A stretch of DNA of 64,000 bases from Gammaproteobacteria bacterium (GTDB lineage Bacteria > Pseudomonadota > Gammaproteobacteria > SZUA-140): NCBI GenBank assembly GCA_016716465.1, contig JADJWH010000001.1, positions 685,414 through 749,413 on the forward strand, read 5' to 3'. Shown piece after piece: positions 5,811 to 60,188 of this stretch. Position 1 is the first letter of the stretch, and each line of letters begins with the position of its first letter. The translations under genes and the position numbers were made by a program. The notes under the pieces were generated by a model. That model was not told the DNA's origin, did no database searches, and was given only the letters and a program-made list of their open reading frames with translations.

Positions 5811-5836
5811 GGGGACAGATTTATAAATCTGTCCCC
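5811..5836. repeat. 25-bp palindromic REP-like element GGGGACAGATTT-N-AAATCTGTCCCC
   Basis: ggggacagatttataaatctgtcccc, in the ureF-ureG spacer. Confidence 0.8.
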
Positions 5837-5875
5837 ATTTACTGAGTCCTTAGTCCTCTCTTTAACGAGGTAATT

Positions 5876-6490
5876 ATGTCCAAACAAACCCTACGTGTCG
5901 GCGTCGGCGGTCCGGTCGGTTCGGGCAAGACCGCCCTGGTGGACGCCCTGTGCAAACGCATGCGGGAGCGCTACAACATCGCCGTGGTGACCAACGACAT
6001 CTACACCCAGGAGGATGCGCAATTCCTCGTGCGCAGCGCGGCGCTGGCGCCGGAGCGCATCATCGGCGTGGAGACCGGCGGCTGTCCCCATACGGCGATC
6101 CGCGAGGACGCCTCCATCAATCTGGTGGCGGTGGACAAGCTGTGCCAGCGTTTTCCGGATCTCGACCTGGTGCTGGTCGAGAGCGGCGGCGACAATCTGA
6201 GCGCGACCTTCAGCCCCGAGCTGTCCGATCTGACCATTTACGTGATCGATGTCGCCGCCGGCGACAAGATCCCGCGCAAGGGCGGACCCGGCATCATGAA
6301 ATCCGACCTGCTGGTGATCAACAAGATCGATCTCGCCCCGTACGTCGGCGCCTCGCTCGAGGTGATGGAGCGCGACGCGCGCAAGATGCGCGGCGCCCGG
6401 CCGTTCGTCTTCACCAACATGAAGACGGGGCACGGCCTCGATATTGTCGAGAACTTCATCCGCGAGGCGGGGCTGCTGGATGTCGCGTGA
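5876..6490 (+). CDS. ureG: Urease accessory GTPase UreG
   Basis: [20 protein letters not shown]...ESGGDNL...[12 protein letters not shown]. Confidence 0.95.
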
Positions 6491-6494
6491 ATGC

Positions 6495-6644
6495 CAGGAC
6501 CAGGGACTAAGCAACAGTAGATCCCGCTGATTACGGAGGGAGGGTTGGCCTAGATACTGCGTGGAGATAGAGAGTGTTAAGTCCCCGGATTCCGCTGCGC
6601 TCCATCCGGGCTACAGTTTAATATTTTAATTAGTCCGGGTCCTG
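6495..6644. repeat. Composite intergenic structure: a GGACTAA-family inverted pair flanking a CCCGGATT...ATCCGGG hairpin repeat (6573-6604)
   Basis: caggaccagggactaagc ... ttagtccgggtcctg; the inner element is ccccggattccgctgcgctccatccgggctac. Confidence 0.4.
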
Positions 6645-6683
6645 TCTATCCGCTTTCCGCGTCCACGCCCGGCGGTGTAATCT

Positions 6684-8996
6684 ATGCGGATGCCCGCGGC
6701 ACCCGTACCGACGCAATATCCCGTCCTCCGCCAACTCAAACGCCCCGCGCTGATCCTGGCGGGGTTGCTGATCATATATGCGCTCGCGGGATTTATCCTC
6801 CTGCCCGCAATCGCGCGCTCGCAGGCCGTGGATATCCTCAAGGAGCGTTACCGTCTCGATCTGGAGATCGGCAAGCTTCGCTTCAACCCGTTCACCTTTT
6901 CCGCGCGTCTCGAAGGCGTGAGCCTGAGCGATCCGGGCGGCGAGCGGCTGCTGGCGTTCGCGGCCTTTGGCGCGGATTTCGAGCTGCGCTCGCTGATCGA
7001 TCGGGCCCTGGTCTTCAAGTCGGTCACCTTGAGCCGGCCCTATGTGCACATTCATCTGCGTGAGGACGGGACGGTGAACCTGGCGCGGGCCTTCGCGTCA
7101 CCGCCGGGCGAGACTGCCGATGACGGACCCGCTTCGGCGCCCCCGGCACTGATCATCGGGGACATCGCGCTGAACGGTGGAGACCTGCACTTCACGGACA
7201 ATTCTCAGGGCCGTGATTTCGATCAGCACTTCACGCCGCTCGACCTGCACGTACAGCGCTTCTCGACGCGGCCGGAGGATCGCTCCGATCTCGTCGGCCT
7301 GAACATCAGTATCGGTGAGAGCGGGCGGCTAACGGTCTCGGGCGATCTGTCGGCCATCCCGACCCGTTTCGATATTCAACTCGCTGCACGCGGCATCCCG
7401 CTGGCCATCTTCCAGCCCTATCTTGAGGATCGCCTGCCGGCACGTATCAGTGACGGGTCGCTCGACTTCGATCTCTCGCTCGCGCAGGGGGAGCCGGGAC
7501 AGACCTCGCGACTGAAGCTGAGCGGCAAGGCCGCCATTCGCGGGCTCGCGGTCAAGCTCAAGGAGCGCGACGATGTGGCGCTGGCCTGGGAAGAGGTGGC
7601 GGCGAACGGCATGACGCTGGATCTGAGCCCCGATCGTCTCGCCATCGGCGAGATCGCCATCCGCGGGCTCGATACCTCGTTCAAGATCTACGCCGACGGC
7701 CGCACGAACGTCAGCGAGATGGCGCGCCAGGCGCGCGGGGAGTCGCCGGAATCCGCGGCGATGGCGCCGGAGGAACCGGCAGCGGCGGGTACGGATTCGA
7801 CGACGTCCGGCTTTCCATACGCAATCGACCGCGTCGTCGTCGCCGGTTCGCACCTGATGTTCAGCGACACACAGATCCAGCCGAACGTGCGGATACGCAT
7901 CGAGGATCTTGCCGGCGAGATACGCGGCATCGCCTCCGCTCCCGAAGCGCAAACGACCATCGCGCTCACCGGCCGCGTCGGCGAATATGGGAAGGCGAAG
8001 ATCGACGGCGCGGCGCGACTCGCGGCGCCCAGGCAGGACCTGAAGGCCAGGGTCACGTTTGATAACGTCGAGCTGACCTCGTTCTCGCCCTACGCGGGCA
8101 AGTTCGCCGGTTACACCATCGACAAGGGCAAGCTGTTCCTCGATCTGGACTACACCCTGGCCGGCAGCCGCATCCGGGGCGAGAATCACGCCGTGTTCGA
8201 TCAGTTCGAACTCGGCGACAGGGTCGACAGCGCGGATGCCCTCAAGCTGCCCATCAAGTTCGCGCTGTCGCTGCTGCGCGACCGCGAAGGCCGCATCGAC
8301 ATCGATCTGCCGGTGGAAGGCGATGTCGACGCGCCCGGTTTCAGGCTGGGTCCGCTGGTCGTCAAGGCGCTGGTCAATCTGGTCACGCGTATCGTCACCG
8401 CGCCTTTCGATTTCATCGCCGGCATGTTCGTTGGCGGGCCGGAGATGGAATACGCCGTATTCGCGCCGGGCGACGGCGCGCTGCCCGGCGCGGAGCGCGA
8501 AAAGATCCTGCCCCTGTCGCGCGCGCTTGCCGAACGGCCGCGCCTCGTGGTCGAGGTCCAGGGCTGGGCGGATCCCGGCGCCGATGCCGTCGCCCTGCGG
8601 CAGGGCAAGTTCGATGCCTTGCTGGCCGCCGCAGGCCCGCCCACGGACGCCGCGCTGGTCACCGCGTACGACGGTTTTTTCGGCGCCGGCGCCGTGGCCG
8701 CGTTGCGCACCGAACTTGCGGCCGGAGCCCGGTCCGATCCGGCGGCGGAGCCTGCCGGAGAGATGCCCGCCGATCCCGAGGCAGCGTTCCGGGCCGAGTT
8801 GAGCAATCGTCTGCTCGCCGCCCAGCCGGTGACCGACGAGGAACTGGCGGCGCTCGCCTATGCCCGCGGCGAACAGGTGATGGGCCTGCTCGTACAGGAC
8901 GGCGGCGTGGAGGCGGAGCGCGTCTTCGTGCGCCGGGGCGAGATTGCCCGCGACGGCGAGGGCACGAGGGCGAAACTGATCCTCGATGCGCGCTAG
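6684..8996 (+). CDS. Large membrane-anchored protein, DUF748/AsmA-like (function unknown)
   Basis: 770-aa ORF. N-terminal TM helix LILAGLLIIYALAGFILLPAI, then a long beta-rich, low-complexity body. The family assignment is from memory only. Confidence 0.55.
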   Translation: MRMPAAPVPTQYPVLRQLKRPALILAGLLIIYALAGFILLPAIARSQAVDILKERYRLDLEIGKLRFNPFTFSARLEGVSLSDPGGERLLAFAAFGADFELRSLIDRALVFKSVTLSRPYVHIHLREDGTVNLARAFASPPGETADDGPASAPPALIIGDIALNGGDLHFTDNSQGRDFDQHFTPLDLHVQRFSTRPEDRSDLVGLNISIGESGRLTVSGDLSAIPTRFDIQLAARGIPLAIFQPYLEDRLPARISDGSLDFDLSLAQGEPGQTSRLKLSGKAAIRGLAVKLKERDDVALAWEEVAANGMTLDLSPDRLAIGEIAIRGLDTSFKIYADGRTNVSEMARQARGESPESAAMAPEEPAAAGTDSTTSGFPYAIDRVVVAGSHLMFSDTQIQPNVRIRIEDLAGEIRGIASAPEAQTTIALTGRVGEYGKAKIDGAARLAAPRQDLKARVTFDNVELTSFSPYAGKFAGYTIDKGKLFLDLDYTLAGSRIRGENHAVFDQFELGDRVDSADALKLPIKFALSLLRDREGRIDIDLPVEGDVDAPGFRLGPLVVKALVNLVTRIVTAPFDFIAGMFVGGPEMEYAVFAPGDGALPGAEREKILPLSRALAERPRLVVEVQGWADPGADAVALRQGKFDALLAAAGPPTDAALVTAYDGFFGAGAVAALRTELAAGARSDPAAEPAGEMPADPEAAFRAELSNRLLAAQPVTDEELAALAYARGEQVMGLLVQDGGVEAERVFVRRGEIARDGEGTRAKLILDAR

Positions 8997-9010
8997 GCGC
9001 ATGACCATTG

Positions 9011-9035
9011 GGGGACAGATTTGAAATCTGTCCCC
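9011..9035. repeat. 25-bp palindromic REP-like element
   Basis: ggggacagatttgaaatctgtcccc. Confidence 0.8.
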
Positions 9036-9050
9036 GTACACTACATCTCC

Positions 9051-10262
9051 CTACACCGCGCGCCGCGCGGCTTGCGAGCCCCAGATGAAAGACGCGTGCC
9101 GCCGCCACGCATCGGCGAGCGCGTGGCGGATATCGTCCGGTCCCAGGGCGGCGAGCCGGGCCAGGCGTTCGTTGAGGGCTGTGACACGGTCCAGGTAGGC
9201 GATCTCGTGCGCGATGCGTTCCATTACGCACTCGGGGTCGTCTTCCTCCAGCGTCCAGCGCGCCTGCAGTTGAGCGAGATGGCGAACCAGCTCCTCGCGC
9301 CCCGGTCCATGCTGGATCAGCGCTTCCATGACGGATTCGACCGCCGTGGCGCAGCGTCCTTCCATGCCGGGTTCGCAGCGCACGCGGATCCACCAGAGAC
9401 CGCAATCGCTATAGAGCTCCAGACGGGACTCGACTGCATATGCGAGCCCGAGCCGTTCGCGCAACTCGTATTGCAGACGTGCGGAGAGCGGCGCCCCGGC
9501 GGCGATCTGTTCCGCGAGCAGCAATGCCGGATAGGCCGGTTCGCCCAAGGTCGGTACCGGCATCAGCCAGAGCAGGTCGGAACCGTCGCCGCCCGCGGGT
9601 CCGTGCAGGGAGCAGGGCGTGAATTCCGCTGGCGGCGCATCGCGCTGATCCCCGGCGGGCAGTTGCTCCAGCGCACGACAGGCCTCCACCAGTTCGTCAT
9701 GACGGACATCGCCCGCCGCCACGACCCAGATCGCGGGACCGCGCAGACGGGACGCGCAATATTCCTGCACTGCCGCGGCATTGGCCCGGGGTCTGTTCCC
9801 GCTCCCCAGGATCGGCCGGGCGAGCGGGTGTCCATCCCAGACGCGCCGGAGCGCGAAGGCCTCCTGCTCGTCCCACAGGGACTGCGAGGCCATCCGGCGC
9901 TCATGCCATACCGCGGGCAGTTCGGCGGCAAGTTCCTTCGCCCCGAGGCGCGGTTCGAGCAGCAGGGCGGCGAACAGGCCTGCCAGCGCGCCCACGCGAT
10001 CACCGGTCACCAGGCCGTGAAAGGCGGTAAGTTCACGCATGGTGCGGGCATTGACATGACCGCCCAGCACCGCGAATTGGTCGGTGTAACGACCGCCGCC
10101 GTGGAACAGCAGATGCTCGAGCAGGTGCGCGTAGCCATCCTGGCCGGGGGTTTCGTGGCGTGAACCGTTGCGCAACCAGAGCCCGAGTGACGCGCTGCGC
10201 CGGCCGGGCAGCGGGCGGCTCAGGACGCGGACACCATTCGCGAGTGTGGTACAGGCCGTCAT
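9051..10262 (-). CDS. M16-family (pitrilysin/PqqF-like) zinc metallopeptidase, last gene of the riboswitch-controlled ABC operon
   Basis: Inverted zinc motif HLLEHLLFHG (HxxEH), then VLGGHVNARTMRELTAF, matching the M16 N-terminal signature. The start overlaps the ATPase stop (ATGA, 10259-10262). Confidence 0.75.
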   Translation of the reverse strand: MTACTTLANGVRVLSRPLPGRRSASLGLWLRNGSRHETPGQDGYAHLLEHLLFHGGGRYTDQFAVLGGHVNARTMRELTAFHGLVTGDRVGALAGLFAALLLEPRLGAKELAAELPAVWHERRMASQSLWDEQEAFALRRVWDGHPLARPILGSGNRPRANAAAVQEYCASRLRGPAIWVVAAGDVRHDELVEACRALEQLPAGDQRDAPPAEFTPCSLHGPAGGDGSDLLWLMPVPTLGEPAYPALLLAEQIAAGAPLSARLQYELRERLGLAYAVESRLELYSDCGLWWIRVRCEPGMEGRCATAVESVMEALIQHGPGREELVRHLAQLQARWTLEEDDPECVMERIAHEIAYLDRVTALNERLARLAALGPDDIRHALADAWRRHASFIWGSQAARRAV

Positions 10263-11070: not shown

Positions 11071-11892
11071 TGCGCGCGGCATCTCCGCGTGATACCAGGG
11101 GAACAGTCGCCGCGACAGCCGGCGCAGGAGCAGGTCGAAGGCATAGGCCAGCAGGGTGATCCAGGCGACGTAGGGCAGGATGAGGTCCATGGCCAGATAG
11201 CGCCGCACCAGAAAGATGCGATAGCCGAGTCCGTCGGTCGCCGCGATCGCCTCGGCCGCGATCAGGAACAGCCACGCCGCGCCCAGCGAGAGCCGGACCG
11301 CGTCGAGCAGGCGCGGCAGGATCTGCGGCAGCACCACGCGCAGGATGACCAGCCAGGTCGAGGCGCCCAGGGTCTGGGCCTTGATCAGCTGTTCCGGCGG
11401 GATCTCACCCGTGCGCAGCGCGAGGTCACGGATCAGGAAGGGCGTGATGCCGATGACGATCAGCACGATCTTCGAAACCTCGCCCAGCCCGAACACGATG
11501 AACAGGATGGGCAGGATCGCGAGCGGCGGAATCAGCGAGAGCACCGCCACCAGCGGAGCGAAGGCCGCGCGCAGGCGCGGGATGACGCCGATCAGCACGC
11601 CCGCCGCCAGCCCCAGCAGGGCGCTGATCAGGATGCCCGAGCCCAGACGCAGCAGACTGCTCGCGGTGTCCTTCCACAGCAGGATATCGCCGCTGCGCGC
11701 GTCCGGCTCGAAGGCGACCTGCTGGATGGCCGCGCCGAAGGCGGCGAAGGAGGGCAGCAGCTTGTCATTCGGATTCGACGCGAGACGCAGGTCCGAGCCG
11801 ACGATGTAGGCCGCCACGATCAGCAGGAAGGGCAGCGCGCCCAGGGCGAGCGCGCCGGACCTTCCGGGATGCTGATTGAGCAGGCGGGGCAT
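11068..11892 (-). CDS. ABC transporter permease (NitT/TauT family)
   Basis: Polytopic membrane protein containing an EAA-like loop (AAEAIAATDGLGYRIF). Confidence 0.85.
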   Translation of the reverse strand: MPRLLNQHPGRSGALALGALPFLLIVAAYIVGSDLRLASNPNDKLLPSFAAFGAAIQQVAFEPDARSGDILLWKDTASSLLRLGSGILISALLGLAAGVLIGVIPRLRAAFAPLVAVLSLIPPLAILPILFIVFGLGEVSKIVLIVIGITPFLIRDLALRTGEIPPEQLIKAQTLGASTWLVILRVVLPQILPRLLDAVRLSLGAAWLFLIAAEAIAATDGLGYRIFLVRRYLAMDLILPYVAWITLLAYAFDLLLRRLSRRLFPWYHAEMPRA

Positions 11893-12975: not shown

Positions 12976-13137
12976 ATTTTCCCCTTGAGCTGTCAGTTCT
13001 GTTGCGTCAGACCGAGTGCCGGGGAGGTATGCGCCGAGACGGACCGGAGAAGCCGGCAGGCACCGTCAGGACATCACACATCCGCGGCCTGTGCCTCCCG
13101 GGCTTTTATCCCGCCGTGTATCCGAGCTCTCCGAACC

Positions 13138-13166
13138 GGGGACAGATTTATTTATCCGATCTGTCC
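13138..13166. repeat. Degenerate REP-like palindrome inside riboswitch 2 (P2-region hairpin)
   Basis: ggggacagatttatttatccgatctgtcc. Confidence 0.5.
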
Positions 13167-13216
13167 GCGTGTCGTGCCGCCCGGACTGCATCCCTTGGAC
13201 CAGCCATCCCTGGGAA

Positions 13217-13241
13217 CGGGGACAGATTTAAAATCTGTCCC
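13217..13241. repeat. 25-bp REP-like palindrome forming the P1a-position hairpin of riboswitch 2
   Basis: ggggacagatttaaaatctgtcccc, directly downstream of CUAGGGUUCCGG on the minus strand. Confidence 0.8.
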
Positions 13242-13600
13242 CGGTACAAGAGACCGGAACCCTAGATGCTCTGAACAGGGTTTAGCAATTAGCATGCCGC
13301 GCCCATGGGCAAGGCCTGTGGCGCGAGCTAACAGATTGACTGTTCTTGCATTCGCCTGTGCGATCTTCACCGTGGCTCGCGCATGACTGAGCCCGCGCGA
13401 CAGTCCGTCGCGAATAATTGCCCCATCATGGTGAGGCGACACTTCGAAATGCGCGGAAATGGTGCCTGATAAGCGAGTCAGGGCCGGGCGCACGGCGCGT
13501 GTTCCGCGGGAATCCGTGCCGGCATTCCATCATCGAACTGTTGGCTATTCCATCACTTAGCCGATGGCACGCATTGTCCCGGTTCATGCCTGGTGCAGGA

Positions 13601-13616: not shown

Positions 13617-13666
13617 ATCTCACAGGGCAAGCGGCCATGGCCGCGATAATCAGCCTATCAGGATGA

Positions 13667-13793
13667 CTAGGGTTCCGGTTCCGCGTGGTACGCGGGGACA
13701 GATGTAAATCCGTCCCCGATGGCGATGCGGGGCGACTGGTCCGAGAGTCATCGGCCTCCGGCGCGGAGGTTACACGGCGGGATAAAAGCCCGG
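13667..13793 (+). promoter_or_regulatory. Guanidine-I (ykkC-type) riboswitch aptamer in the gdmH leader
   Basis: CUAGGGUUCCGG ... GGUCCGAGAG ... ACACGGCGGGAUAAAAGCCCGGGAGAG. All three hallmark ykkC blocks are present in the correct order. Confidence 0.8.
13694..13717. repeat. REP-like palindrome (one arm mismatch) embedded in the P1a-position hairpin of riboswitch 1
   Basis: ggggacagatgtaaatccgtcccc. Confidence 0.6.
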
Positions 13794-13817
13794 GAGAGCA
13801 GGCCTCTCTCGACTTTT
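13794..13817 (+). terminator. Riboswitch expression-platform intrinsic terminator
   Basis: gagagcaggcctctctc followed by gacTTTTGTT. The 5' half overlaps the aptamer 3' end (CCCGGGAGAG), the classic ligand-ON arrangement. Confidence 0.5.
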
Positions 13818-13850: not shown

Positions 13851-15044
13851 ATGGCCGATTTTTCCCGATACCGTTCCCGTACGCTGAAACCTTCGCTGCG
13901 CAATCCGGCGCACCGGCACCACCCCTCGTTCGACAAGACCCAGCTGCATGGCTGGAAGGCCGCGCACAAAGAGGCCGAACTGTCACATAGCGGCTGGGAC
14001 GCGGAGGAAAGGCGCTGTCTGGAGCTCGGACTGCCGGGTGCGGACAGCATCCAGGACAAATCGATCCCCACCTTCGCCCGCGGCGAGCTGCCGCACTATG
14101 CGGGCATCAACACCTTCATGAAGGCCCCGTACTGCGAGGACATCAAGGATGTCGGCAAGTACGATGCGGCGATCATCGGCGTGCCGTTCGATGGCGGCAC
14201 CACCTACCGGCCCGGCACGCGCTTCGGGCCACAGGGCATCCGGCGCATCTCGGCGCTGTATACGCCCTATAACTACGAACTCGGCGTCGACCTGCGCGAG
14301 CAGATGACCCTGTGCGATACCGGGGACGTGTTCACGATCCCGGCCAATATCGAGAAGACCTTCGACCAGATCAGTCGCGCGGTCGGTTACGTGTTCGCGA
14401 GCGGGGCGCTGCCGATCATCCTGGGCGGCGACCACTCGATCGGATTCGCCACGGTACGCGGCATCGCGCAGCAGACCGACAAAAAGATCGGCATCATCCA
14501 CTTCGACCGCCACGCCGACATCCAGGAAAAGGATCTCGACGAGCGCATGCACACGACGCCGTGGTTCCATGCCACCAATCTGCCCAACGTGCCGGCGTCC
14601 AATCTGGTGCAGATCGGCATCGGCGGCTGGCAGGTGCCACGCCAGGCGGTGAAGGAGGCGCGCAAGCGCGACACCACGATCATCACGATGAACGACGTGG
14701 AGAAGCTCGGCCTCGACAAGGTGGCGGAGATCGCGCTGGAAACCGCCTGGCACGATGCGGACGCGGTCTATCTGAGCTTCGACATCGACAGCGTGGACGC
14801 CGGCTTCGTGCCGGGCACCGGCTGGCCGGAGCCGGGCGGTTTCCTGCCGCGCGAGATCCTCTATCTATTGGGCATGGTCGCGCGCGAGGGCATCTGCGGC
14901 ATGGAGGTCGTGGAGGTCTCGCCACCCTACGACGTCTCTGACATCACCTCGCTGATGGCGATGCGGGGCATCGTCGACGTGCTCGGCACCCTGGTCGCCC
15001 ACGGCAAGATGGGCGCGCACCGGCACATCATTCGTGGCAGGTGA
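13851..15044 (+). CDS. gdmH: Arginase/agmatinase-family ureohydrolase with a long N-terminal extension; candidate Ni-dependent guanidine hydrolase (GdmH-like)
   Basis: Ureohydrolase motifs GGDHSI, DAHAD-like HFDRHADI, SFDIDSVD. 397 aa. AGGAGG Shine-Dalgarno sequence 5 nt before ATG 13851. Directly downstream of a guanidine-I riboswitch. Confidence 0.75.
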   Translation: MADFSRYRSRTLKPSLRNPAHRHHPSFDKTQLHGWKAAHKEAELSHSGWDAEERRCLELGLPGADSIQDKSIPTFARGELPHYAGINTFMKAPYCEDIKDVGKYDAAIIGVPFDGGTTYRPGTRFGPQGIRRISALYTPYNYELGVDLREQMTLCDTGDVFTIPANIEKTFDQISRAVGYVFASGALPIILGGDHSIGFATVRGIAQQTDKKIGIIHFDRHADIQEKDLDERMHTTPWFHATNLPNVPASNLVQIGIGGWQVPRQAVKEARKRDTTIITMNDVEKLGLDKVAEIALETAWHDADAVYLSFDIDSVDAGFVPGTGWPEPGGFLPREILYLLGMVAREGICGMEVVEVSPPYDVSDITSLMAMRGIVDVLGTLVAHGKMGAHRHIIRGR

Positions 15045-15093: not shown

Positions 15094-15121
15094 GGGGACA
15101 GATTTAATCAAATCTGTCCCC
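15094..15121. repeat. REP-like palindrome (28-bp variant)
   Basis: ggggacagatttaatcaaatctgtcccc, 50 bp past the gdmH stop. Confidence 0.8.
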
Positions 15122-15551: not shown

Positions 15552-16226
15552 ATGCATACGAAAAAAATCAGTCGTTTGATGCTCGCGGCCAGCCTGGCGG
15601 CCCCCGCCATGGTGTTCATGCCGATGAGCGCGCAGGCCGGCGCGACCGCCAATATCGGCGTTGCCAATATGTATCTGTGGCGCGGCATGGATGTGAGTGC
15701 CTCCGATGCACAGGTGAGCGGCACCCTGCAGTACAACGCCGACAGCGGTTTCTACGTCGGCGGCTGGGCCTCCAGCACCTGGGCCGGCGCAGGATATGAG
15801 CTCGACCTGTATGGTGGTTATGGCGGCAGCGCGGGCGATTTCAAGTACGACATCTCGTTTTGGGAGTACCTGTATCCAGAGGCCGGCTTTGTACCGGGTG
15901 ACGATGTCGGTCTCGGCGACACGGATGCCTCCGACTTGGTGCTGAGCGTCGCCTACGACATGTTCTCGGCCGCCGCCTACGTCAACACGGACAGTGATCT
16001 TCCCGATGCGGTCTATTACACCCTTGGTGTTTCCTCGGGCAAATTCGGCGGTACGTTCGGTTTCTGGACCGGCGATGATGATGCCCTGGACTACAGCCAT
16101 ATCACGCTGAGCTACAACCCGATCGAGTCGCTCACCTTCAAGCTGAGCATGGCTTCCTCGGGCGATACGGAAGTGGAAGAGGATCCCCTGGTCCAGGTTT
16201 CCTATACCTGGGGTTTTGATCTGTAA
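15552..16226 (+). CDS. Small outer-membrane beta-barrel protein (porin-like), possibly a urea/guanidine channel
   Basis: Signal peptide MLAASLAAPAMVFMPMSAQA. Alternating G/Y/S/T-rich strands. C-terminal YTWGFDL. Confidence 0.55.
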   Translation: MHTKKISRLMLAASLAAPAMVFMPMSAQAGATANIGVANMYLWRGMDVSASDAQVSGTLQYNADSGFYVGGWASSTWAGAGYELDLYGGYGGSAGDFKYDISFWEYLYPEAGFVPGDDVGLGDTDASDLVLSVAYDMFSAAAYVNTDSDLPDAVYYTLGVSSGKFGGTFGFWTGDDDALDYSHITLSYNPIESLTFKLSMASSGDTEVEEDPLVQVSYTWGFDL

Positions 16227-16338
16227 GTCATGATGTCGATCCACGCTGTCTAGACTTCGGGGGGCGGGGCCCGCGGGCGCCGTCCCCCGATTCATTTCGT
16301 CATTCACCCGCCATATACAAAAGAAGAGGAAGGGGATC

Positions 16339-17637
16339 ATGAAAAATCACAAATTGCTGAGTTGGAGGAATCTGTTTGGCTCGCTGGCTGCCGTTGCCCT
16401 GACCGCGGGGACCCTGACCGCGCAGGCCGCCGACACGATCAAGGTCGGTGTACTGCATTCGCTGTCCGGCACCATGGCGATCAGCGAGACGACGCTGAAG
16501 GACACGGTCCTGATGCTGGTCGATGAGCAGAACAAGAAGGGCGGCCTGCTCGGCAAGAAGCTCGAGGCGGTGGTGGTCGACCCGGCGTCGAACTGGCCGC
16601 TGTTCGCCGAGAAGGCGCGCGAGCTGATCCAGAAGGACAAGGTCGCGGTGGTGTTCGGCTGCTGGACCTCGGTGTCGCGCAAGTCCGTGCTGCCGGTATT
16701 CGAGGAACTGAACGGACTGCTGTTCTATCCGGTGCAGTATGAAGGCGAGGAGTCCTCCAAGAACGTGTTCTACACCGGCGCGGCGCCCAACCAGCAGGCG
16801 ATCCCGGCGGTGGACTACCTGATGAAGGACATCGGCGTGAAACGCTGGGTGCTGGCCGGCACCGACTATGTGTACCCGCGCACCACCAACAAGATCCTCG
16901 AGGCCTATCTGAAGGCGAAGGGCGTCAAGTCCGAGGACATCATGATCAACTACACGCCGTTCGGCCATTCGGACTGGCAGAGCATCGTGTCCGACATCAA
17001 GAAGTTCGGGTCCGAGGGCAAGAAGACGGCGGTGGTCTCGACCATCAACGGCGACGCCAACGTGCCGTTCTACAAGGAACTCGGCAACCAGGGTATCTCG
17101 GCCGAGGACATCCCGGTCGTGGCATTCTCGGTCGGCGAGGAAGAGCTGTCCGGTCTGGATACCGCCCCGCTGGTCGGGCACCTGGCCGCCTGGAACTACT
17201 TCATGAGCATCGATACGCCGGAAAACGCGGCCTTCATCAAGAAATGGCATGACTTCATCAAGAACCCGAAGCGCGTCACCAACGACCCGATGGAGGCGCA
17301 CGTGATCGGTTTCAACATGTGGGTGAAGGCGGTCGAGAAGGCCGGCACGACGGATACCGACGCGGTTGAGAAGGCGATCATCGGTATCGAGACGCCGAAC
17401 ATGACCGGAGGCATGGCGAAGATGCTGCCCAATCACCACATCACCAAGCCGGTCTTCATCGGTGAGATCCAGGATGACGGCCAGTTCGAGGTGGTCTGGA
17501 AGACCGACGGCCTGGTGCCTGGAGACGCCTGGTCCGACTTCCTGCCCGGCAGCAAGGATATCGAGGCCGACTGGGTGACGCTGAAGTGCGGTAACTACAA
17601 CACCAAGACCAAGAAGTGCTCCGGACAGAATTACTGA
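16339..17637 (+). CDS. urtA: Urea ABC transporter substrate-binding protein
   Basis: 432 aa, Liv-type binding-protein fold: IKVGVLHSLSGTMAISE...VVFGCWTSVSRKSVLPVFEE. Confidence 0.85.
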   Translation: MKNHKLLSWRNLFGSLAAVALTAGTLTAQAADTIKVGVLHSLSGTMAISETTLKDTVLMLVDEQNKKGGLLGKKLEAVVVDPASNWPLFAEKARELIQKDKVAVVFGCWTSVSRKSVLPVFEELNGLLFYPVQYEGEESSKNVFYTGAAPNQQAIPAVDYLMKDIGVKRWVLAGTDYVYPRTTNKILEAYLKAKGVKSEDIMINYTPFGHSDWQSIVSDIKKFGSEGKKTAVVSTINGDANVPFYKELGNQGISAEDIPVVAFSVGEEELSGLDTAPLVGHLAAWNYFMSIDTPENAAFIKKWHDFIKNPKRVTNDPMEAHVIGFNMWVKAVEKAGTTDTDAVEKAIIGIETPNMTGGMAKMLPNHHITKPVFIGEIQDDGQFEVVWKTDGLVPGDAWSDFLPGSKDIEADWVTLKCGNYNTKTKKCSGQNY

Positions 17638-23701: not shown

Positions 23702-23727
23702 GGGGACAGATTTCAAAATCTGTCCCC
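23702..23727. repeat. 25-bp REP-like palindrome
   Basis: ggggacagatttcaaaatctgtcccc. Confidence 0.8.
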
Positions 23728-23743
23728 GGGGGTTACCCGGGGG

Positions 23744-24940
23744 TTACGTTCGTTCAATGTAGTTTCGGATCCGCCATGCCGCCTCCATGCAGTCCTCCAG
23801 CGGCGGCACCAGGGCCATGCGCACGCGGCCGCGGCCCGGGTCGATGCCATGGGCGGGGCGCGACAGGTAGCTGCCCGGCAGCACGGTGACATTTTCCGCC
23901 GCGAACAGGCCACGCGCAAATTCCGCGTCATCACCCGGTGTCTGCGGCCACAGATAGAAGCTGGCGGGCGGGCGCTGAACCTCGAGCACCGGCGTGAGGA
24001 TCTCCAGCACGGCGTCGAATTTCGCGCGGTACAGCGCGCGGTTCCGGATCACGTGTTCCTCGTCGCCCCAGGCCTTCAGACTCGCGGCCTGCGTGTGCGG
24101 CGGCATCGCGCTGCCGTGGTAGGTGCGGTAACGATGGAAGGCCTCGATGATCGCGGCGTCGCCGGCGACGAAGCCCGAGCGCAGGCCCGGCACGTTCGAA
24201 CGCTTCGACAGGCTCTGGAAGATGATGCAGCGCTTGTATTCGGTGTTGCCCAGCGCGGCGGCGGCCGCGAGCAGGCCGGGCGGCGGATCGAGTTCATCGT
24301 CGTACAGCTCCGAGTAGCATTCGTCAGCGGCGATGATGAAATCGAAGCGCTCCGCGAGCTCCAGCACCGCGCGCATCCCGTTCAGGCCGATCACCGCGCC
24401 GGAGGGATTGCCGGGCGAACAGAGATAGAGCAACTGGCAGCGTTGCCAGGCCTCGGCCGGGACCGAGGCGAAATCGGGCAGCCAGTGCGTTTCGGCAGTG
24501 GTGTTGATATACCAGGGCTCCGCGCCGGCGAGCAGGGCGGCGCCCTCGTAGATCTGATAGAACGGATTGGGCATCATGACCCGCGGCGAGCGCGCGCGAT
24601 CGACCACCGTCTGCGCGATGGCGAACAACGCCTCGCGCGTGCCGTTCACCGGCAGGATATGGCGCTCCGGGTCGAGGCTCGCGGCGGGCAGGCCGTAGCG
24701 CCGCTGCAGCCAGCGCGCGATCGCCGCGCGCAGCTCCGCCGTCCCGCGCGTCAGCGGATACTGTTCGAGGCCGTGCAGGTGGGTAATGAGTTCCTCGGCG
24801 ATGAAGCCGGGCGGCGGGTGTTTGGGTTCGCCCATGGCCAGGCTGAGCACGGATTTATCCGCTGCCGGCTGTACCCCATGCTTGAGGCGAGCCAGCCGCT
24901 CGAACGGGTAGGGTTGCAATCGGGCGAGATCAGGATTCAT
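23744..24940 (-). CDS. dapC: Succinyldiaminopimelate transaminase (class I aminotransferase)
   Basis: MNPDLARLQPYPFERL...SLSKRSNVPGLRSGF. Confidence 0.85.
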   Translation of the reverse strand: MNPDLARLQPYPFERLARLKHGVQPAADKSVLSLAMGEPKHPPPGFIAEELITHLHGLEQYPLTRGTAELRAAIARWLQRRYGLPAASLDPERHILPVNGTREALFAIAQTVVDRARSPRVMMPNPFYQIYEGAALLAGAEPWYINTTAETHWLPDFASVPAEAWQRCQLLYLCSPGNPSGAVIGLNGMRAVLELAERFDFIIAADECYSELYDDELDPPPGLLAAAAALGNTEYKRCIIFQSLSKRSNVPGLRSGFVAGDAAIIEAFHRYRTYHGSAMPPHTQAASLKAWGDEEHVIRNRALYRAKFDAVLEILTPVLEVQRPPASFYLWPQTPGDDAEFARGLFAAENVTVLPGSYLSRPAHGIDPGRGRVRMALVPPLEDCMEAAWRIRNYIERT

Positions 24941-25021: not shown

Positions 25022-25095
25022 GGGGACAGATTTAATTTTTGCTCGGGATTCCGCATTTTACACGGGGCACATCTTCAAAAATAAAATCTGTCCCC
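25022..25095. repeat. 74-bp long-loop variant of the REP-like element (the same terminal inverted arms around a ~45-bp core)
   Basis: aaatggggacagatttaatttttg...caaaaataaaatctgtccccattt. Confidence 0.7.
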
Positions 25096-26131: not shown

Positions 26132-26294
26132 TTATCCCAGTGGAGACATGGGGGTGCGGGAGGAATCGAGAAAGCCCCTGAATTGCCGCGCCGCGGGGGA
26201 TCTGCGGCGGTCGGACTGCGCGTTGTTTCACCGACTGCCCAGCCCATCCCGCGGTCTTGAGCGGGGATTTCCCGCCTGACCCGTGGCCTTGAGC

Positions 26295-26319
26295 GGGGAC
26301 AGATTTGAAATCTGTCCCC
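26295..26319. repeat. 25-bp REP-like palindrome
   Basis: ggggacagatttgaaatctgtcccc, preceded by the short direct repeat g(c/t)gg(t/c)cttgagcgggga. Confidence 0.8.
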
Positions 26320-26358
26320 GGCCTTAGATTGATTGAGGTATCAGGGGCATTCTGGTAA

Positions 26359-28947: not shown

Positions 28948-29071
28948 GGGGACAGATTTATTTTTAACGGAATGCTCTCAAAAAAATGGCAGGAAATGGG
29001 GACAGATTTAATTTTTGACCGGAGACTGTTCACTGAACGGAGGTCATCTCACAAAGATAAAATCTGTCCCC
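28948..29071. repeat. Nested cluster of REP-like elements: a partial left arm with core (28948-28997) plus a complete 74-bp long-loop copy (28998-29071)
   Basis: Two aaatggggacagattta left arms and one aaaatctgtccccatttt right arm. The core is ~60% identical to the 25022 copy. Confidence 0.7.
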
Positions 29072-54189: not shown

Positions 54190-54233
54190 GGCAACACCAT
54201 TCACCCATCACCTGTTGTGATTGCTGAGGTGTC

Positions 54234-55400: not shown

Positions 55401-55405
55401 AAAAT

Positions 55406-55547: not shown

Positions 55548-55557
55548 TATTTTGATC

Positions 55558-56640
55558 ATGTCCGACGAAGACCTGCTGAAAACCATCCGCGCCCGCATCG
55601 ATCAGATCGACGGGAAGCTGCAGGAGCTGATCACCGAGCGGGCGCGATGCGCGCTCGAGGTGGCGCGGCTCAAGCATGCCTCCGGCGATATGGATTACTA
55701 TCGGCCGGAGCGCGAGGCGCAGGTGCTGCAGACGGTGCTCGGTCGCAACCAGGGGCCGCTCGACGACGAAGTGGTGGTGCGCCTGTTCCGCGAGATCATG
55801 TCTGCCTGCCTGGCGCTGCAGCGCCCGATCGCCGTGGCCTATCTCGGACCGGAAGGCACCTTCACCGAGGCCGCGGTATTCAAGCATTTTGGCCAGGCGG
55901 TGAGCGCGCGCCCGCTGGCCGCCATCGACGAGGTCTTCCGCGACGTCGAAGCAGGCGCCGTGGATTACGGTGTGGTTCCGATCGAAAACTCCTCCGAGGG
56001 GGCGGTCGATCACACGCTCGACATGTTCATGAGTTCTCCGCTGAAGATCTGCAGCGAGATCGAGTTGCGTATTCATCACAATCTGATGGGCAAGGCGGAC
56101 GCGACGGGCGGGATCAATCGTGTCTATGCGCACCAGATGGCCCTGGCGCAGTGCCGCGAATGGCTCAACGCGCACCTCTCCGGCGTCGAATGCATCCCGG
56201 TCAGCAGCAACGCCGAGGCCGCGCGTCGGGCGCAGGAGGAAGCGGGCGCGGCCGCGATCGCCGGCACCAACGCGGCCGCCATCTACGGCCTGGAGATTCT
56301 CTCGTCCAATATCGAGGACAAGCCGGACAACACGACCCGCTTCCTGGTGATCGGTCGCAAAATCCCCGCGCCGAGCGGACGCGACAAGACTTCCCTGCTG
56401 GTCTCCACGTCCAACAAGCCCGGCGCGCTTTATCGCCTGCTGAAACCCCTGGCTGAACACGGGATTTCCATGAGCCGTATCGAATCGCGGCCTTCCCGGC
56501 GCGAGATGTGGGAATATGTCTTTTTCATCGACATCGAGGGCCATGCCCAGGACGAGAAGGTGGCGGCGGTCATCCGGATCCTGGAAAATGAGGCGGCTGT
56601 GCTCAAGGTGCTGGGTTCGTACCCCTGCGCCGTGTTGTAG
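55558..56640 (+). CDS. pheA: Bifunctional chorismate mutase / prephenate dehydratase
   Basis: MSDEDLLKTIRARIDQIDGKLQELI (chorismate mutase domain)...prephenate dehydratase domain...ACT domain. Confidence 0.9.
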   Translation: MSDEDLLKTIRARIDQIDGKLQELITERARCALEVARLKHASGDMDYYRPEREAQVLQTVLGRNQGPLDDEVVVRLFREIMSACLALQRPIAVAYLGPEGTFTEAAVFKHFGQAVSARPLAAIDEVFRDVEAGAVDYGVVPIENSSEGAVDHTLDMFMSSPLKICSEIELRIHHNLMGKADATGGINRVYAHQMALAQCREWLNAHLSGVECIPVSSNAEAARRAQEEAGAAAIAGTNAAAIYGLEILSSNIEDKPDNTTRFLVIGRKIPAPSGRDKTSLLVSTSNKPGALYRLLKPLAEHGISMSRIESRPSRREMWEYVFFIDIEGHAQDEKVAAVIRILENEAAVLKVLGSYPCAVL

Positions 56641-56710
56641 GGGACGGACTGAAGTCCGTCCCCATGAACGCTCATAAACTGAGTCGGGGACGGATTTGAG
56701 ATCCGTCCCC
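56640..56710. repeat. Two REP-like palindromes carrying compensatory arm substitutions (GGGGACGGA...TCCGTCCCC)
   Basis: ggggacggactgaagtccgtcccc and ggggacggatttgagatccgtcccc. An A-to-G change in the left arm is matched by a T-to-C change in the right arm. Confidence 0.75.
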
Positions 56711-56730
56711 GACACCTAAATTACACCTGA

Positions 56731-57768
56731 ATGAAACAGGCGCAACAAATGATCATCATCATGAAAGCCAGTTCGACCGAGCCGCAGATCGAGGCGGTGG
56801 AGAATCATCTGCGTTCGCTTGGACTGCAACCACACACTTCCCGCGGCATGCAGCGCACCGTCATCGGTGCGATCGGCGACGAACGTGAGATCGACCTGGA
56901 CCGGATCGGTGTACAGGACGGGGTGGAACGCGTCGTGCGGGTGATGAAGCCCTATAAGTTCGTGTCGCGCGAATCGCACGAACAGGACACCGTCATCGAC
57001 GTCAAGGGGATCCCGATCGGCGGCAAGACGATACAGATCATCGGCGGGCCCTGCTCGGTGGAGACGCCGGAACAGATGGAGGCCGCCGCCGCCGGAGTCG
57101 CCGCCGCCGGTTGCCGCCTGATGCGGGGCGGAGCATTCAAGCCGCGCACCAGCCCGTATTCCTTCCAGGGCAAGGGGGTCGACGGACTGGCCATGTTCCG
57201 CACGGCCGCGGCCCGTCACCAGCTGCCCATCGTCACCGAGCTGATGGACGTGCGCATGCTGGATACCTTTCTCGAGCAGAAGGTCGATGTCATCCAGATC
57301 GGCACCCGCAACATGCAGAACTTCGACCTGCTCAAGGAGGTCGGGCGCAGCACCCATACGCCGGTGATCCTCAAGCGCGGCCTGTGCGCCACGATATCGG
57401 AATGGCTGATGGCCGCGGAGTACATCGCCGCCGGCGGCAACCATAACATCATCTTCTGTGAACGCGGCGTCCGGTCTTTCGAGGATGCCTACCGCAACAT
57501 GCTCGACGTCACCGCGGTGCCGGTGCTCAAGCGCGAGACCCATCTGCCGGTACTGATCGACCCCAGCCATGCGGGCGGCAAGGCCTGGATGGTGCCGGCG
57601 TTGTCGCGCGCGGCGATCGCCGCCGGCGCCGACGGCCTCCTGGTGGAGATGCATCCCAACCCGCCGGCGGCCTGGTCGGACGCCGACCAGGCCCTCAGTC
57701 CGCGCGAGTTGGCGGATTTGATGGTCGAGCTGCGCGGCATCGCCCGGGTGCTGGGGCGCGATCTCTAG
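56731..57768 (+). CDS. 3-deoxy-7-phosphoheptulonate synthase (type I-beta), paralogue 2, in the aromatic amino acid operon
   Basis: GGPCSVE...GAFKPRTSPYSFQG...IDPSHAGG. Confidence 0.85.
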   Translation: MKQAQQMIIIMKASSTEPQIEAVENHLRSLGLQPHTSRGMQRTVIGAIGDEREIDLDRIGVQDGVERVVRVMKPYKFVSRESHEQDTVIDVKGIPIGGKTIQIIGGPCSVETPEQMEAAAAGVAAAGCRLMRGGAFKPRTSPYSFQGKGVDGLAMFRTAAARHQLPIVTELMDVRMLDTFLEQKVDVIQIGTRNMQNFDLLKEVGRSTHTPVILKRGLCATISEWLMAAEYIAAGGNHNIIFCERGVRSFEDAYRNMLDVTAVPVLKRETHLPVLIDPSHAGGKAWMVPALSRAAIAAGADGLLVEMHPNPPAAWSDADQALSPRELADLMVELRGIARVLGRDL

Positions 57769-57792
57769 CGCGTCGACCCGCGCCGCCCCGAC

Positions 57793-58689
57793 ATGTCCCT
57801 TGCCGCTCCCGCACAACGACTGACCATCATCGGCGTCGGCCTCATCGGGGGTTCCCTCGCGCGGGCGCTTCGACGCGAGCATCCGGGTATCGAGGTCATC
57901 GGTTGCGGCCGGCATTTGCCCAATCTGGAGCGCGCGCGGGAACTGGGCGTCATCGATCGTTACGAGACCGACCCGGGACGCGCCGTTGAAGGTTCAGACC
58001 TGGTTGTGGTGGCCGTGCCGGTCGGCGCCATCGGACCGATATTCGCGGCGATCGCCGGCCATCTCGCCGACGGCGCCGTCGTCACCGACGTCGGCAGCAC
58101 CAAGGGGAACATCGTGGATGCCGCGCGCCGCAGCCTGGGCGTGCGGCTGGCGGATTTCGTCCCTGGACACCCCATCGCGGGCACGGAACGCAGCGGCGTC
58201 GAGGCCTCGTTCGCGGAACTGTTTCAAGGCTGCCGGGTAATCCTGACACCGCTTGCGGAGACGCGCCGAACGGCGCTCGAACGCGTGCGCGCGCTGTGGT
58301 CACTCGCGGGCGCGCGCGTAAGCGACATGGACGTGCGGCACCATGATGAAGTCCTGGCCGCCACCAGTCACCTGCCGCACCTGCTCGCCTATACACTGGT
58401 GGACACCCTGGCTCGCATGGACGACAGCGAGGAGATCTTCGACTACGCCGCGGGTGGCTTCCGGGATTTCACCCGCATCGCATCCTCCGATCCGGCCCTG
58501 TGGCGCGATATCAGCATCGCCAACCGCGACGCGATGCTCGATACGGTCCAACGCTTCACGGATAACCTTGCCGCCGTCACAGAGGCGCTGCAGCGCAACG
58601 ATGGCGATACGCTGATGAAGGTGTTCGCGCGCGCGAAGGAGGTGAGGGATCGGTTCGCGGAAAAGGGCAAAGTGAAGAGCGAGGAATGA
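57793..58689 (+). CDS. tyrA: Prephenate/arogenate dehydrogenase
   Basis: LTIIGVGLIGGSLARAL. Confidence 0.85.
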   Translation: MSLAAPAQRLTIIGVGLIGGSLARALRREHPGIEVIGCGRHLPNLERARELGVIDRYETDPGRAVEGSDLVVVAVPVGAIGPIFAAIAGHLADGAVVTDVGSTKGNIVDAARRSLGVRLADFVPGHPIAGTERSGVEASFAELFQGCRVILTPLAETRRTALERVRALWSLAGARVSDMDVRHHDEVLAATSHLPHLLAYTLVDTLARMDDSEEIFDYAAGGFRDFTRIASSDPALWRDISIANRDAMLDTVQRFTDNLAAVTEALQRNDGDTLMKVFARAKEVRDRFAEKGKVKSEE

Positions 58690-58693
58690 AACG

Positions 58694-58764
58694 TTAGGTG
58701 ATGAGTGAAGGGTGATGGGTGATCATAACCAGTTCATTGACCCATCACCCATCACCCATAACCA
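58694..58764. repeat. GGTGATG heptamer-array hairpin between tyrA and aroA
   Basis: ttaggtgatgagtgaagggtgatgggtgatcataacc ... gacccatcacccatcacccataacc. Confidence 0.65.
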
Positions 58765-58778
58765 TCTTCAAAGTTGCA

Positions 58779-60188
58779 ATGACGACTAAAGAACATATCT
58801 TCGACATCACCCCCGGCGGCCGCCTGAGCGGTGAAATCCGCGTTCCCGGCGACAAGTCGATTTCGCACCGCTCCATCATGTTCGGCTCGCTGGCCGAGGG
58901 AGTCACCGAGGTGGAGGGGTTCCTGGAGGGTGAGGACAGCCTGGCGACACTGGCGGCGTTCCGCCGCATGGGTGTCGCCATCGACGGGCCGGCACAGGGG
59001 CGGGTCACCATTCGCGGCGCAGGCATGCGCGGGCTGAGTGCGCCCGACGGCCCGCTCGATCTGGGCAATTCCGGGACCTCGATGCGCCTGATGGCCGGGC
59101 TGTTGTCCGCGCAGTCCTTCGATACTGAACTGACCGGCGACGCCTCGCTGTCGCGCCGGCCGATGCGCCGGGTGACACAACCGCTGGCATCGATGGGCGC
59201 GCGTATCGAGACGGAGGCCGCGGGCACGCCGCCGCTGCGCATTCGCGGCGGATCGCCGCTGCGCGGCATACGCTACGACATGCCGGTCGCAAGCGCCCAG
59301 GTCAAATCCGCGCTGCTGCTGGCCGGGCTCTATGCCGACGGCGAGACCTGCGTGACCGAGCCCGCGCCCACGCGCGATCACACCGAACGCATGCTGACCG
59401 CCTTCGGTTATCTGGTCACGCGCCACCACAACACCGTCTGCGTGAAGGGCGGAGGGCGGCTCAATCCGACCCGCATTGCGATCCCGGCGGATATTTCCTC
59501 GGCGGCGTTCTTCCTGGTCGGAGCCGCGATTGCGCCGGGGTCCGACGCGACGCTGACCGATGTCGGCATCAATCCGACGCGCATCGGCGTGATCAACATC
59601 CTGCAGCAGATGGGCGCGCGCATCGATATCCTCAACAAGCGCATGTTCGGCGGCGAACCGGTGGCCGACCTGCGCGTGCGCGCGGGCATGCTCAAGGGCA
59701 TCGACATCCCGATCGAGCAGGTCCCGCTGGCGATCGATGAATTTCCCGCACTCTTCATCGCCGCGGCCTGCGCCGAAGGCCGGACGGTGCTGACCGGCGC
59801 GGAGGAACTGCGCGTCAAGGAAAGCGACCGCATCCAGGTCATGGCCGACGGCCTGCGGCGGCTGGGCGTCATGGCCGAGCCGACGCCGGACGGGATTGTC
59901 ATCGAAGGGAAGGGCGTAGCCGGTGCCAAGGGGACAGATTTAAAATCTGTCCCCAATGGCGCAACTTCTGTCCCCGAACATCAGGCGGTATTTTCCGGTG
60001 GTGAGGTCGAGAGCCACGGCGATCACCGCATCGCGATGGCCTTCGCGGTGGCCGGCTTTCGTGCCGCAGGCCCGATTCGCATCCGCGACTGCAAGAATGT
60101 GGATACCTCGTTCCCGGGGTTCGTGGGACTGGCGCGGAAATCCGGATTAAAAATCAAAACACAGGACTTAGGACTCGGGACTGAGTGA
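58779..60188 (+). CDS. aroA: 3-phosphoshikimate 1-carboxyvinyltransferase (EPSP synthase) carrying an in-frame ~24-aa repeat-derived insertion
   Basis: ITPGGRLSGEIRVPGDKSISHRSIMFGSLA...SHGDHRIAMAF. The insertion KGTDLKSVPNGATSVP is encoded by a REP copy. The last 8 codons and the stop are encoded by a heptamer array. Confidence 0.9.
   Translation: MTTKEHIFDITPGGRLSGEIRVPGDKSISHRSIMFGSLAEGVTEVEGFLEGEDSLATLAAFRRMGVAIDGPAQGRVTIRGAGMRGLSAPDGPLDLGNSGTSMRLMAGLLSAQSFDTELTGDASLSRRPMRRVTQPLASMGARIETEAAGTPPLRIRGGSPLRGIRYDMPVASAQVKSALLLAGLYADGETCVTEPAPTRDHTERMLTAFGYLVTRHHNTVCVKGGGRLNPTRIAIPADISSAAFFLVGAAIAPGSDATLTDVGINPTRIGVINILQQMGARIDILNKRMFGGEPVADLRVRAGMLKGIDIPIEQVPLAIDEFPALFIAAACAEGRTVLTGAEELRVKESDRIQVMADGLRRLGVMAEPTPDGIVIEGKGVAGAKGTDLKSVPNGATSVPEHQAVFSGGEVESHGDHRIAMAFAVAGFRAAGPIRIRDCKNVDTSFPGFVGLARKSGLKIKTQDLGLGTE
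59930..59975. repeat. REP-like palindrome plus a duplicated right arm, inserted in-frame within aroA
   Basis: ggggacagatttaaaatctgtcccc aatggcgcaa cttctgtcccc. Confidence 0.8.
60162..60187. repeat. GGACTNA heptamer array encoding the aroA C-terminus and stop
   Basis: caggacttaggactcgggactgagtga reads Q D L G L G T E stop. Confidence 0.6.

Follow-up and report, generated by a model that had tools for sequence, protein, structure and literature searches.

The window analyzed here, a 64,000-nt stretch of an ordinary gammaproteobacterial chromosome (GC 61-68%; positions 685,414 to 749,413 of contig JADJWH010000001.1), contains a family of 25-bp palindromes that are very probably gene-less derivatives of a TIRtron. 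In a TIRtron, a unit of about 0.9 kb, a Y1 transposase gene of the HUH type is bracketed by inverted ends, here (A)AAAGGGGACAGATTTATTT(T). The gene in question is a TIRYT gene, which corresponds to TnpA-Y1 subclass 2.1 and to Group 1 of the transposases associated with repetitive extragenic palindromes (REPs), the REP-associated tyrosine transposases (RAYTs). Each 25-mer would consist of a left and a right end in head-to-head arrangement, separated by 1-4 nt; the 74-bp relatives would consist of longer ends around a short core, and the solitary arms of single ends.

A preliminary description of this DNA had proposed a repeated palindrome family, and the family is real. With both strands of the window counted, the 12-mer half-site GGGGACAGATTT occurs 23 times at ≤1 mismatch against 0.17 expected from dinucleotide-preserving shuffles, and the full palindrome, GGGGACAGATTT-N(1-4)-AAATCTGTCCCC, occurs seven times against 0.00 expected. 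A scan at two mismatches combined with a reading of each context gave 15 sites: seven exact short palindromes, three variants, two long forms of 74 bp, and three partial or solo pieces. The earlier figure of about 16 copies of the pattern was therefore too high. Two further matches with two mismatches, at 14058 and 19545, are probably due to chance. Ten copies are head-to-head dimers, while solo ends stand at 28948 and 13138. When folded with DNA energies, the short copies form hairpins of 10-13 bp and -9 to -17 kcal/mol, and none of 200 shuffles folds as well.

The gene-bearing unit is represented by a locus (L115) in which an open reading frame (ORF) of 243 aa lies between inverted GGGACAGATCTATTT ends. 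The product matches the Pfam family Y1_Tnp (48.8 bits) and the NCBIfam model 'REP-associated tyrosine transposase' (82.8 bits, cut-off 80), aligns with E. coli TnpAREP (PDB 4ER8) at E 2.6e-4, and finds over 7,800 homologues at E ≤ 1e-20, including proteins of Thioalkalivibrio and many of Pseudomonas. The same ends accompany homologous genes in Thioalkalivibrio sp. ALM2T (L121, where only the upstream end was found) and in an ENA contig (L122). On the P. aeruginosa plasmid NZ_CP116719.1, perfect 31-bp ends, AAAGGGGACAGATTTATTTTCCCTACTCTAA, enclose the TIRYT WP_033954923.1, which is annotated 'transposase' (16138-17576; L203). This 24-kb plasmid has three matching places, and some 65 nt upstream of the left end it carries a partial one, AGATTTATTTTTACTACTCTAA. 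Carriage on plasmids is rare, as TIRYTs were found in 8 of 72,556 plasmid records.

The association of arm and gene was assessed across 82 TIRYT loci from metagenomes and genomes, 80 of which, among the matches listed, came from scanning metagenomes with a 22-homologue alignment, and ends were accepted at ≤2 mismatches. In 62 of 75 loci the start codon is preceded, at a distance of 35-150 nt, by the 16-mer GGGGACAGATTTATTT; in 66 of 76 the complement of this 16-mer follows the stop codon at a distance of 0-80 nt, and both ends are present in 50 of the 70 loci in which both flanks are readable. The suggestion that a Y1 HUH transposase be sought elsewhere was well aimed, in that a gene of this kind is what the arm brackets in those 50 loci, although the window itself has none. 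Flanking the gene are single arms that pair with each other across it, not self-folding hairpins. The proteins of the 82 loci are 55-91% identical to the query and the DNA has a GC content of 0.37-0.70. Since the end sequence is kept despite the divergence of the protein and of the DNA around it, the ends are under strong constraint.

Within an alignment of 22 of these proteins (A1), which range from 219 to 245 aa, the motifs NHVHLLL, LWE, and (Y)IELNP are invariant or nearly so. Subclass 2.1 is defined by NHVH, W[EQ], and YIELNP, a median length of 238 aa, and a C-terminus with similarity to Bac_DnaA_C, HTH_23, or HTH_28 (Quentin et al., 2018; PMC6006769). The end motif GGGGWSAS, described for TIRtrons by Di Nocera, De Gregorio and Rocco (2013, BMC Genomics 14:522; PMC3733652), is present as GGGGACAG in the seven exact window copies and as GGGGACGG in variants. 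Several end variants occur at both ends of a unit together, namely GGTGAC (L187, L191), CGGGAC (L166, L188), GGGGACGG (L137, L170, L172), and ATCT (L122). Covariation of the two ends is real at the level of the family; it is accounted for equally well by hairpin pairing and by a single protein that recognizes both ends. At one locus situated at a contig end (L194), the flanks beyond the ends form a perfect inverted repeat of more than 80 nt, with TCAA standing in place of the terminal GGGG on each side; the assembly may have folded back on itself here, or the extension may have been templated by a hairpin.

Because a Y1 gene unit has the arm GGGGACAGATTT(ATTT) as its terminal inverted repeat (TIR), the window palindromes can be read as left and right ends joined without the gene. 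In copies 13138 and 28948 the 16-mer is complete, and in the long forms the ends include their A/T-rich extension. At 558-684 of L115, a remnant still has the 3′ coding tail of the transposase; it is an intermediate, and the parent of the palindromes is the gene-bearing unit. The preliminary description regarded the elements as non-autonomous, mobile-type DNA and the 25-mers as core-deleted derivatives of the 74-bp forms. Its first part is borne out, and the idea of core-deleted derivatives is right in essence, in that both forms are gene-less fusions of a left and a right end, but no evidence singles out the 74-bp forms as the progenitor of the 25-mers.

The exact palindrome is found in at least 120 stretches from at least 67 species-representative assemblies belonging to several phyla (one genome per species, exact pattern), and these cross-genome scans give lower bounds, not a census. 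Local GC content in the stretches varies from 0.29 to 0.68, and the flanks are unconserved. Among the matches listed, cultured carriers include Marinobacter, Halorhodospira, Desulfurivibrio, and Desulfamplus, and metagenome bins with the palindrome are labelled Syntrophales, Desulfobacteraceae, Nitrospirota, Gammaproteobacteria, Chloroflexota, Acidobacteriota, Actinomycetes, Clostridium, Bacteroidota, and Coprothermobacterota. The taxonomic labels of such bins may be wrong; since cultured strains carry the palindrome and the GC spread is wide, it is nevertheless not a lineage-specific REP. The window and the 120 palindrome loci have no other DNA in common among the matches listed, and only one of the 120 contains the transposase gene. 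Variants affecting both arms are common in other genomes (ACACATT/AATGTGT, AGACTT/AAGTCT, and AGAATT/AATTCT). No Rfam family was found for the palindrome in an Rfam scan, and literature searches for the sequence itself returned only eukaryotic primer matches.

Clusters of ends occur in L113, L109, and L075. A recurrent layout consists of left arm, right arm, spacer, and an extra arm (L113 1-1700, L075 1-350, L032, L039, L045, L049, L062, L067, and others), in which the extra solo arm has the same orientation, lies 10-20 nt outside the full palindrome, and is at times repeated three or four times. L109 contains, at 2897-4587, elements of 170-230 bp that have the same ends and a common internal sequence, one of which (3519-3747) includes a nested variant palindrome at 3603-3626. 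After the left end, L109 has AGCCTTCCCGGCC, the reverse complement of which would encode the G-R-P-G motif of TIRYT C-termini; the L109 elements may be gene-deleted units.

A further feature of the gene units may reflect the action of the enzyme at its ends. A tandem repeat covering the end of the terminus adjoins 46 of the 213 unique ends in the gene loci, and in 30 of the 46 the repeat unit starts exactly at the G of GTCCCC (AAATCT|GTCCCC), while its 3′ boundary varies. In a control with shuffled flanks over all ends, the figure was 2 of 617. The duplications are perfect, lie outside TIRYT ends, and mostly measure 11-17 nt (L123-L202; for example L144, L171, L174, L202, L137, L141, and L187). 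TnpAREP enzymes cut at a CT dinucleotide and act on folded single-stranded DNA (PMC8266576). From the sequences, we infer that the duplications are scars of a site-specific nick after CT, AAATCT^GTCCCC, since a nick followed by short synthesis and religation is expected to fix the 5′ boundary and leave the 3′ boundary variable. A two-cut model, in which DNA between two CT sites is excised, was rejected, as the duplicated units end in TG, CC, CG, or CA at their 3′ boundaries and not in CT.

If the enzyme behaves like its homologues TnpAREP and those of the IS200 type, a TIRYT encoded at another place in the genome would act in trans on single-stranded DNA in which the arms are paired. It would nick after the CT of AAATCT^GTCCCC, remain linked to the 5′ G, and rejoin the strand, so that the hairpin is copied or moved. 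Scars would arise when the nick is followed by short strand-displacement synthesis from the 3′-OH and by religation of the displaced, enzyme-linked 5′ end. The functional hairpin may be formed by the inner AGATTT-N-AAATCT, with GGGGAC serving like a 5′ guide that pairs with GTCCCC; alternatively, the A-run and T-run around each end of a gene unit may present the site in a loop. Inserted copies would persist for long periods and be tolerated in intergenic spacers, in the terminal loops of riboswitches, and in a surface loop of AroA.

The genes of the window include urease accessory genes, a urea/guanidine ABC transporter, dapD, dapC, pyrG, kdsA, eno, pheA, a DAHP synthase gene, aroA, and cmk. 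According to the preliminary description, the copies lie mostly just after stop codons or between divergent genes. This is an incomplete account: several do lie just 3′ of genes, while three are in riboswitch aptamers, one is in the aroA coding sequence, and two are within operons (ureE/F-ureG and dapC-dapD). The copy at 5811-5836 (exact arms, 2-nt loop, -11.5 kcal/mol, z -6.4) stands between the ureE-containing ORF, whose stop lies 11 nt before it, and ureG, which is 40 nt further on. That at 9011-9035 (exact arms, 1-nt loop) separates convergent genes with stops at 8996 and 9051, and that at 15094-15121 (exact arms, 4-nt loop) follows the stop of an agmatinase-like gene by 50 nt. Between dapC and dapD, both on the minus strand, lies the copy at 23702-23727 (exact arms, 2-nt loop), directly after which a short tandem repeat, GGGGGTTACCCGGGGGTTACG, occupies 23728-23748. 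The exact-armed copy at 26295-26319, upstream of pyrG, is the only one in the window with a possible target-site-like direct repeat (8 of 9 positions; GGCCTTGAGC on the left and GGCCTTAG on the right, within 26285-26327). Elsewhere in the window, an Rfam match to 5_ureB_sRNA (111.9 bits; 2912-3198, minus strand) runs antisense within the urease structural gene region and probably reflects conservation of coding sequence rather than a small-RNA gene.

The two 74-bp forms lie at 25022-25095, between the divergent dapC and transporter genes (-23.7 kcal/mol, z -8.4), and at 28998-29071, between kdsA and eno. Both have common ends of about 24 nt, AAATGGGGACAGATTTAATTTTTG, that include A/T runs outside the GGGG, and in the former these ends surround a core of about 34 nt. 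The 50 nt between the 12-mers are identical at 35 of 52 positions with gaps (67%) and the innermost 34 nt at 20 of 36 (56%), a score reached by 7 of 500 shuffles; the earlier statement of shared ends around divergent cores about 60% alike agrees with these values. A solo left-end-type terminus, GGGGACAGATTTATTTT, which is a 16-mer match to the gene-unit consensus, lies at 28948-28964 on the plus strand, 38 nt before the second long form.

Three copies are found in two divergent guanidine-I riboswitches, at 13656-13798 (plus strand) and 13093-13276 (minus strand), both of which score above the Rfam gathering threshold. Each of their terminal-loop insertions holds one copy. The 42-nt insertion in the P1 loop of the plus-strand riboswitch contains a hybrid variant, GGGGACAGATGT/AAATCCGTCCCC (13694-13717), with one stem mismatch. 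On the minus strand, the 35-nt insertion in the P1 loop contains an exact-armed palindrome (13218-13242), and the 49-nt insertion in the P2 loop contains a degenerate copy (13138-13168) made up of the full 16-nt end, GGGGACAGATTTATTT, followed by ...GATCTGTCCGC. These copies may reflect either a preference for hairpin loops or the survival of harmless insertions.

In aroA (58719-60188), the essential gene for EPSP synthase, an exact palindrome at 59930-59954 is in frame and encodes GTDLKSVP. Compared with solved AroA structures, the protein has a 17-residue in-frame insertion, AKGTDLKSVPNGATSVP, in a loop. A GTDLKSVP-like insertion is common to ten related AroA proteins that are 84-95% identical and is absent from those at ≤76%. 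The window lineage has 21 nt more in aroA (NGATSVP), and within this addition lies a partial extra arm (59964-59975, minus strand), in which a second TCTGTCCCC, at 59967-59975, follows the palindrome after 12 nt; this 12-nt spacer does not match the flank as a copy would.

Two relatives (L204 and L205) were compared around aroA, their AroA proteins being about 91% and 87% identical to that of the window. Orthologues of copies 56640, 56686, and 59930 are present at the same positions in both, in diverged form (L204 7757-7818 and 11149-11173; L205 7768-7827 and ~11143-11167), and they differ in whether arm position 7 is A or G. In aroA, the copy and the remaining gene have diverged at similar rates (third-codon identity 0.79 and 0.66), and active homogenization of this palindrome was rejected for that reason. 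Since the sites are occupied in the relatives and yet have diverged, the copies are old and have not been homogenized.

These comparisons also bear on the two G-type palindromes, GGGGACGGACTGAAGTCCGTCCCC at 56640-56663, whose first base is also the last of the pheA stop codon, and GGGGACGGATTTGAGATCCGTCCCC at 56686-56710, upstream of the DAHP synthase gene. As the preliminary description noted, each A-to-G change in one arm is matched by a T-to-C change in the other, which leaves perfect stems of 10-13 bp. The conclusion drawn there, that selection acts on the hairpins, does not follow: the paired change is weak evidence, because GGGGACGGATTT is a pre-existing end variant found at both ends of gene units elsewhere (L137, L170, L172), copy 13694 mixes an A-type left arm with a G-type right arm, and the orthologues drift. 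It is more plausible that both copies belong to, or descend from, a known end variant than that their hairpins were compensated locally.

Other origins for the palindromes were weighed against these data. Dense extragenic palindromes and a protein that passes the NCBIfam RAYT model recall the canonical REP or REPIN elements of E. coli, Pseudomonas, and Stenotrophomonas, which are mobilized by RAYTs of Group 2 or 3 (PMC3116915; PMC8266576). This origin is nonetheless highly improbable, as neither foot of the palindrome has GTAG or CGTC, the feet being GGGG and CCCC with unconserved flanks, and the gene is flanked by mutually pairing single arms where REP hairpins would fold on themselves. In addition, the protein motifs are those of subclass 2.1 (NHVH/YIELNP) and not of subclass 2.2 (DHLH/YIHYNP) or 2.5, and the same sequence recurs across phyla, whereas REPs are lineage-specific. 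Membership in IS200/IS605 was ruled out by YIELNP in place of Y---Q, by the terminal inverted repeats, by an NCBIfam IS200 score of 19.9 bits (cut-off 55), and by the low gene count, one among the 120 palindrome loci, where IS200/IS605 genes reach high copy number. Miniature inverted-repeat elements of an ordinary DDE transposon, moved by cut-and-paste as double-stranded DNA and having ends that merely resemble those of the Y1 gene, would account for TIRs of 16-31 bp and for the 74-bp forms with their unrelated core. Very little likelihood is left to them: in the 50 loci with both ends, the ends bracket the Y1 gene and nothing else, and no consistent target-site duplication accompanies the nine short window copies read, copy 26295 alone having a direct repeat. 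An element of 25 bp would be too short for a DDE synaptic complex. Further candidates (the ends of Tn3, IS5, ISL3, and IS1595, dif/res sites, CRISPR repeats, attC, and uptake sequences) were dropped once the Y1 gene was found between the arms.

It could also be argued that the palindromes are structural elements selected by the host and now immobile, such as terminators, mRNA-stabilizing hairpins, or sites for host proteins, co-opted from relics. Their stable hairpins, the location of several just 3′ of genes, the retention of orthologous copies in three related genomes, and the T-runs on both sides of long form 25022 speak for such roles. As a full account this is improbable. When the seven exact copies, copy 56686, and the long forms were read for intrinsic terminators, a T-run was found only at 25022, which lies between divergent gene starts; terminator activity therefore seems unlikely for most copies, given that the short copies read lack a T-run and that two copies are in operons. 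Positions in three riboswitch aptamers and one coding sequence also fit poorly, arms that are 1-4 nt apart in some copies and 50 nt apart in others would hardly suit a fixed dimeric site on double-stranded DNA, and the aroA orthologue has changed at about the pace of the gene around it. Terminators or operators that evolved in situ would not explain why the same sequence is found across phyla. Selection by the host explains retention and not origin, and is compatible with descent from a TIRtron, as is a possible co-option for transcript stability.

Several observations weigh against derivation from a TIRYT gene unit. Neither the 64-kb window nor the syntenic 21-kb stretches from the two relatives contain a TIRYT gene, and the cognate enzyme is assumed to lie elsewhere in the source genome. 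Direct signs of recent movement were absent, with no target-site duplications and with all three orthologous sites occupied in the relatives; the copies are possibly relics, old and slowly turning over. The predicted nick lies inside the stem of the 25-mer, while characterized Y1 enzymes cut single-stranded DNA beside a hairpin. The conserved C-terminal extension of TIRYT proteins (about 100 aa) gave no Pfam helix-turn-helix match even at E ≤ 5, and the helix-turn-helix similarity of the subclass 2.1 C-terminus was not recovered. According to published surveys, REP-like sequences are missing from the neighbourhood of subclass 2.1 genes (Quentin et al., 2018; PMC6006769), and flanking 16-mers are only modestly numerous for Group 1, with a mean of 12 (Bertels et al., 2017; PMC5581495). 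Descent from a TIRtron remains the very probable origin. A broader proposal, offered tentatively and with some doubt, is that Group 1/subclass 2.1 enzymes might drive a near-universal REP-like system with a conserved 16-nt end, a defined nick, a 25-nt mobile hairpin, a preference for insertion into hairpin loops or single-stranded DNA, and fixation in essential genes.

TIRYT or Group 1 RAYT genes are the commonest RAYT type, and the main phylogenomic survey lists no repeats associated with them. To our knowledge, no biochemistry exists for these enzymes. The window indicates that TIRYT ends can populate a genome at REP-like density, and a concrete substrate (the 25-nt hairpin or the 16-nt end) together with a predicted nick site makes the enzyme activity directly testable. 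The copies in riboswitch loops and aroA provide natural examples of repeats that were tolerated and then inherited, and they call for caution in annotation, as such palindromes are not always extragenic. On the whole, the observations of the preliminary description were largely right and its interpretation was largely on target.

Compared with known systems, the elements are an unusually dense example of a known but barely studied kind of repeat. Y1 genes flanked by long inverted repeats were named TIRtrons, and their products TIRYTs, by Di Nocera et al. (2013), who described moderately abundant families of end repeats occurring as singles, dimers, and clusters (PMC3733652). The present family resembles them in its Y1 gene with long TIRs rather than REP hairpins, in GGGGWSAS, and in its dispersed singles, dimers, and clusters. 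It differs in abundance, with 15 sites in 64 kb and the minimal 25-bp fusion dominant, and in the invariance of the 16-mer across phyla shown here. That study does not describe nick-site scars or insertions in riboswitches and aroA, and its text does not print the exact sequence. Cross-phylum invariance of the ends, nick-site scars, copies in riboswitch loops, and a conserved in-frame copy in aroA appear to be new. TIRYTs were later equated with TnpA-Y1 subclass 2.1 and with the Group 1 of Bertels (Quentin et al., 2018; PMC6006769), which surpasses the other RAYT groups in size and in breadth of distribution and is rarely carried on plasmids (Bertels et al., 2017; PMC5581495). The enzymes considered here have the same motifs, a length close to 238 aa, a wide but patchy spread, low copy number, and rare plasmid carriage; whereas that group was reported without REPs or with modest 16-mer counts, the window shows palindromes derived from its ends at REP-like density. 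With the REP/REPIN-RAYT systems of Groups 2 and 3 (TnpAREP, 4ER8, and the REPINs of Pseudomonas), the family has in common a single-copy HUH Y1 enzyme and dense, mostly extragenic, long-lived palindromes. Cleavage at CT is experimentally shown in those systems and inferred here, and the present elements differ in that they lack a GTAG guide, flank the gene with complementary arms, and are conserved in sequence across phyla instead of co-diverging with the host. Finally, the Rickettsia palindromic elements and intragenic REPs offer a parallel to the aroA copy, as palindromes that stand in frame in a conserved coding gene and are kept over evolutionary time, but they belong to another sequence family and another enzyme, and a single intragenic copy is seen here.

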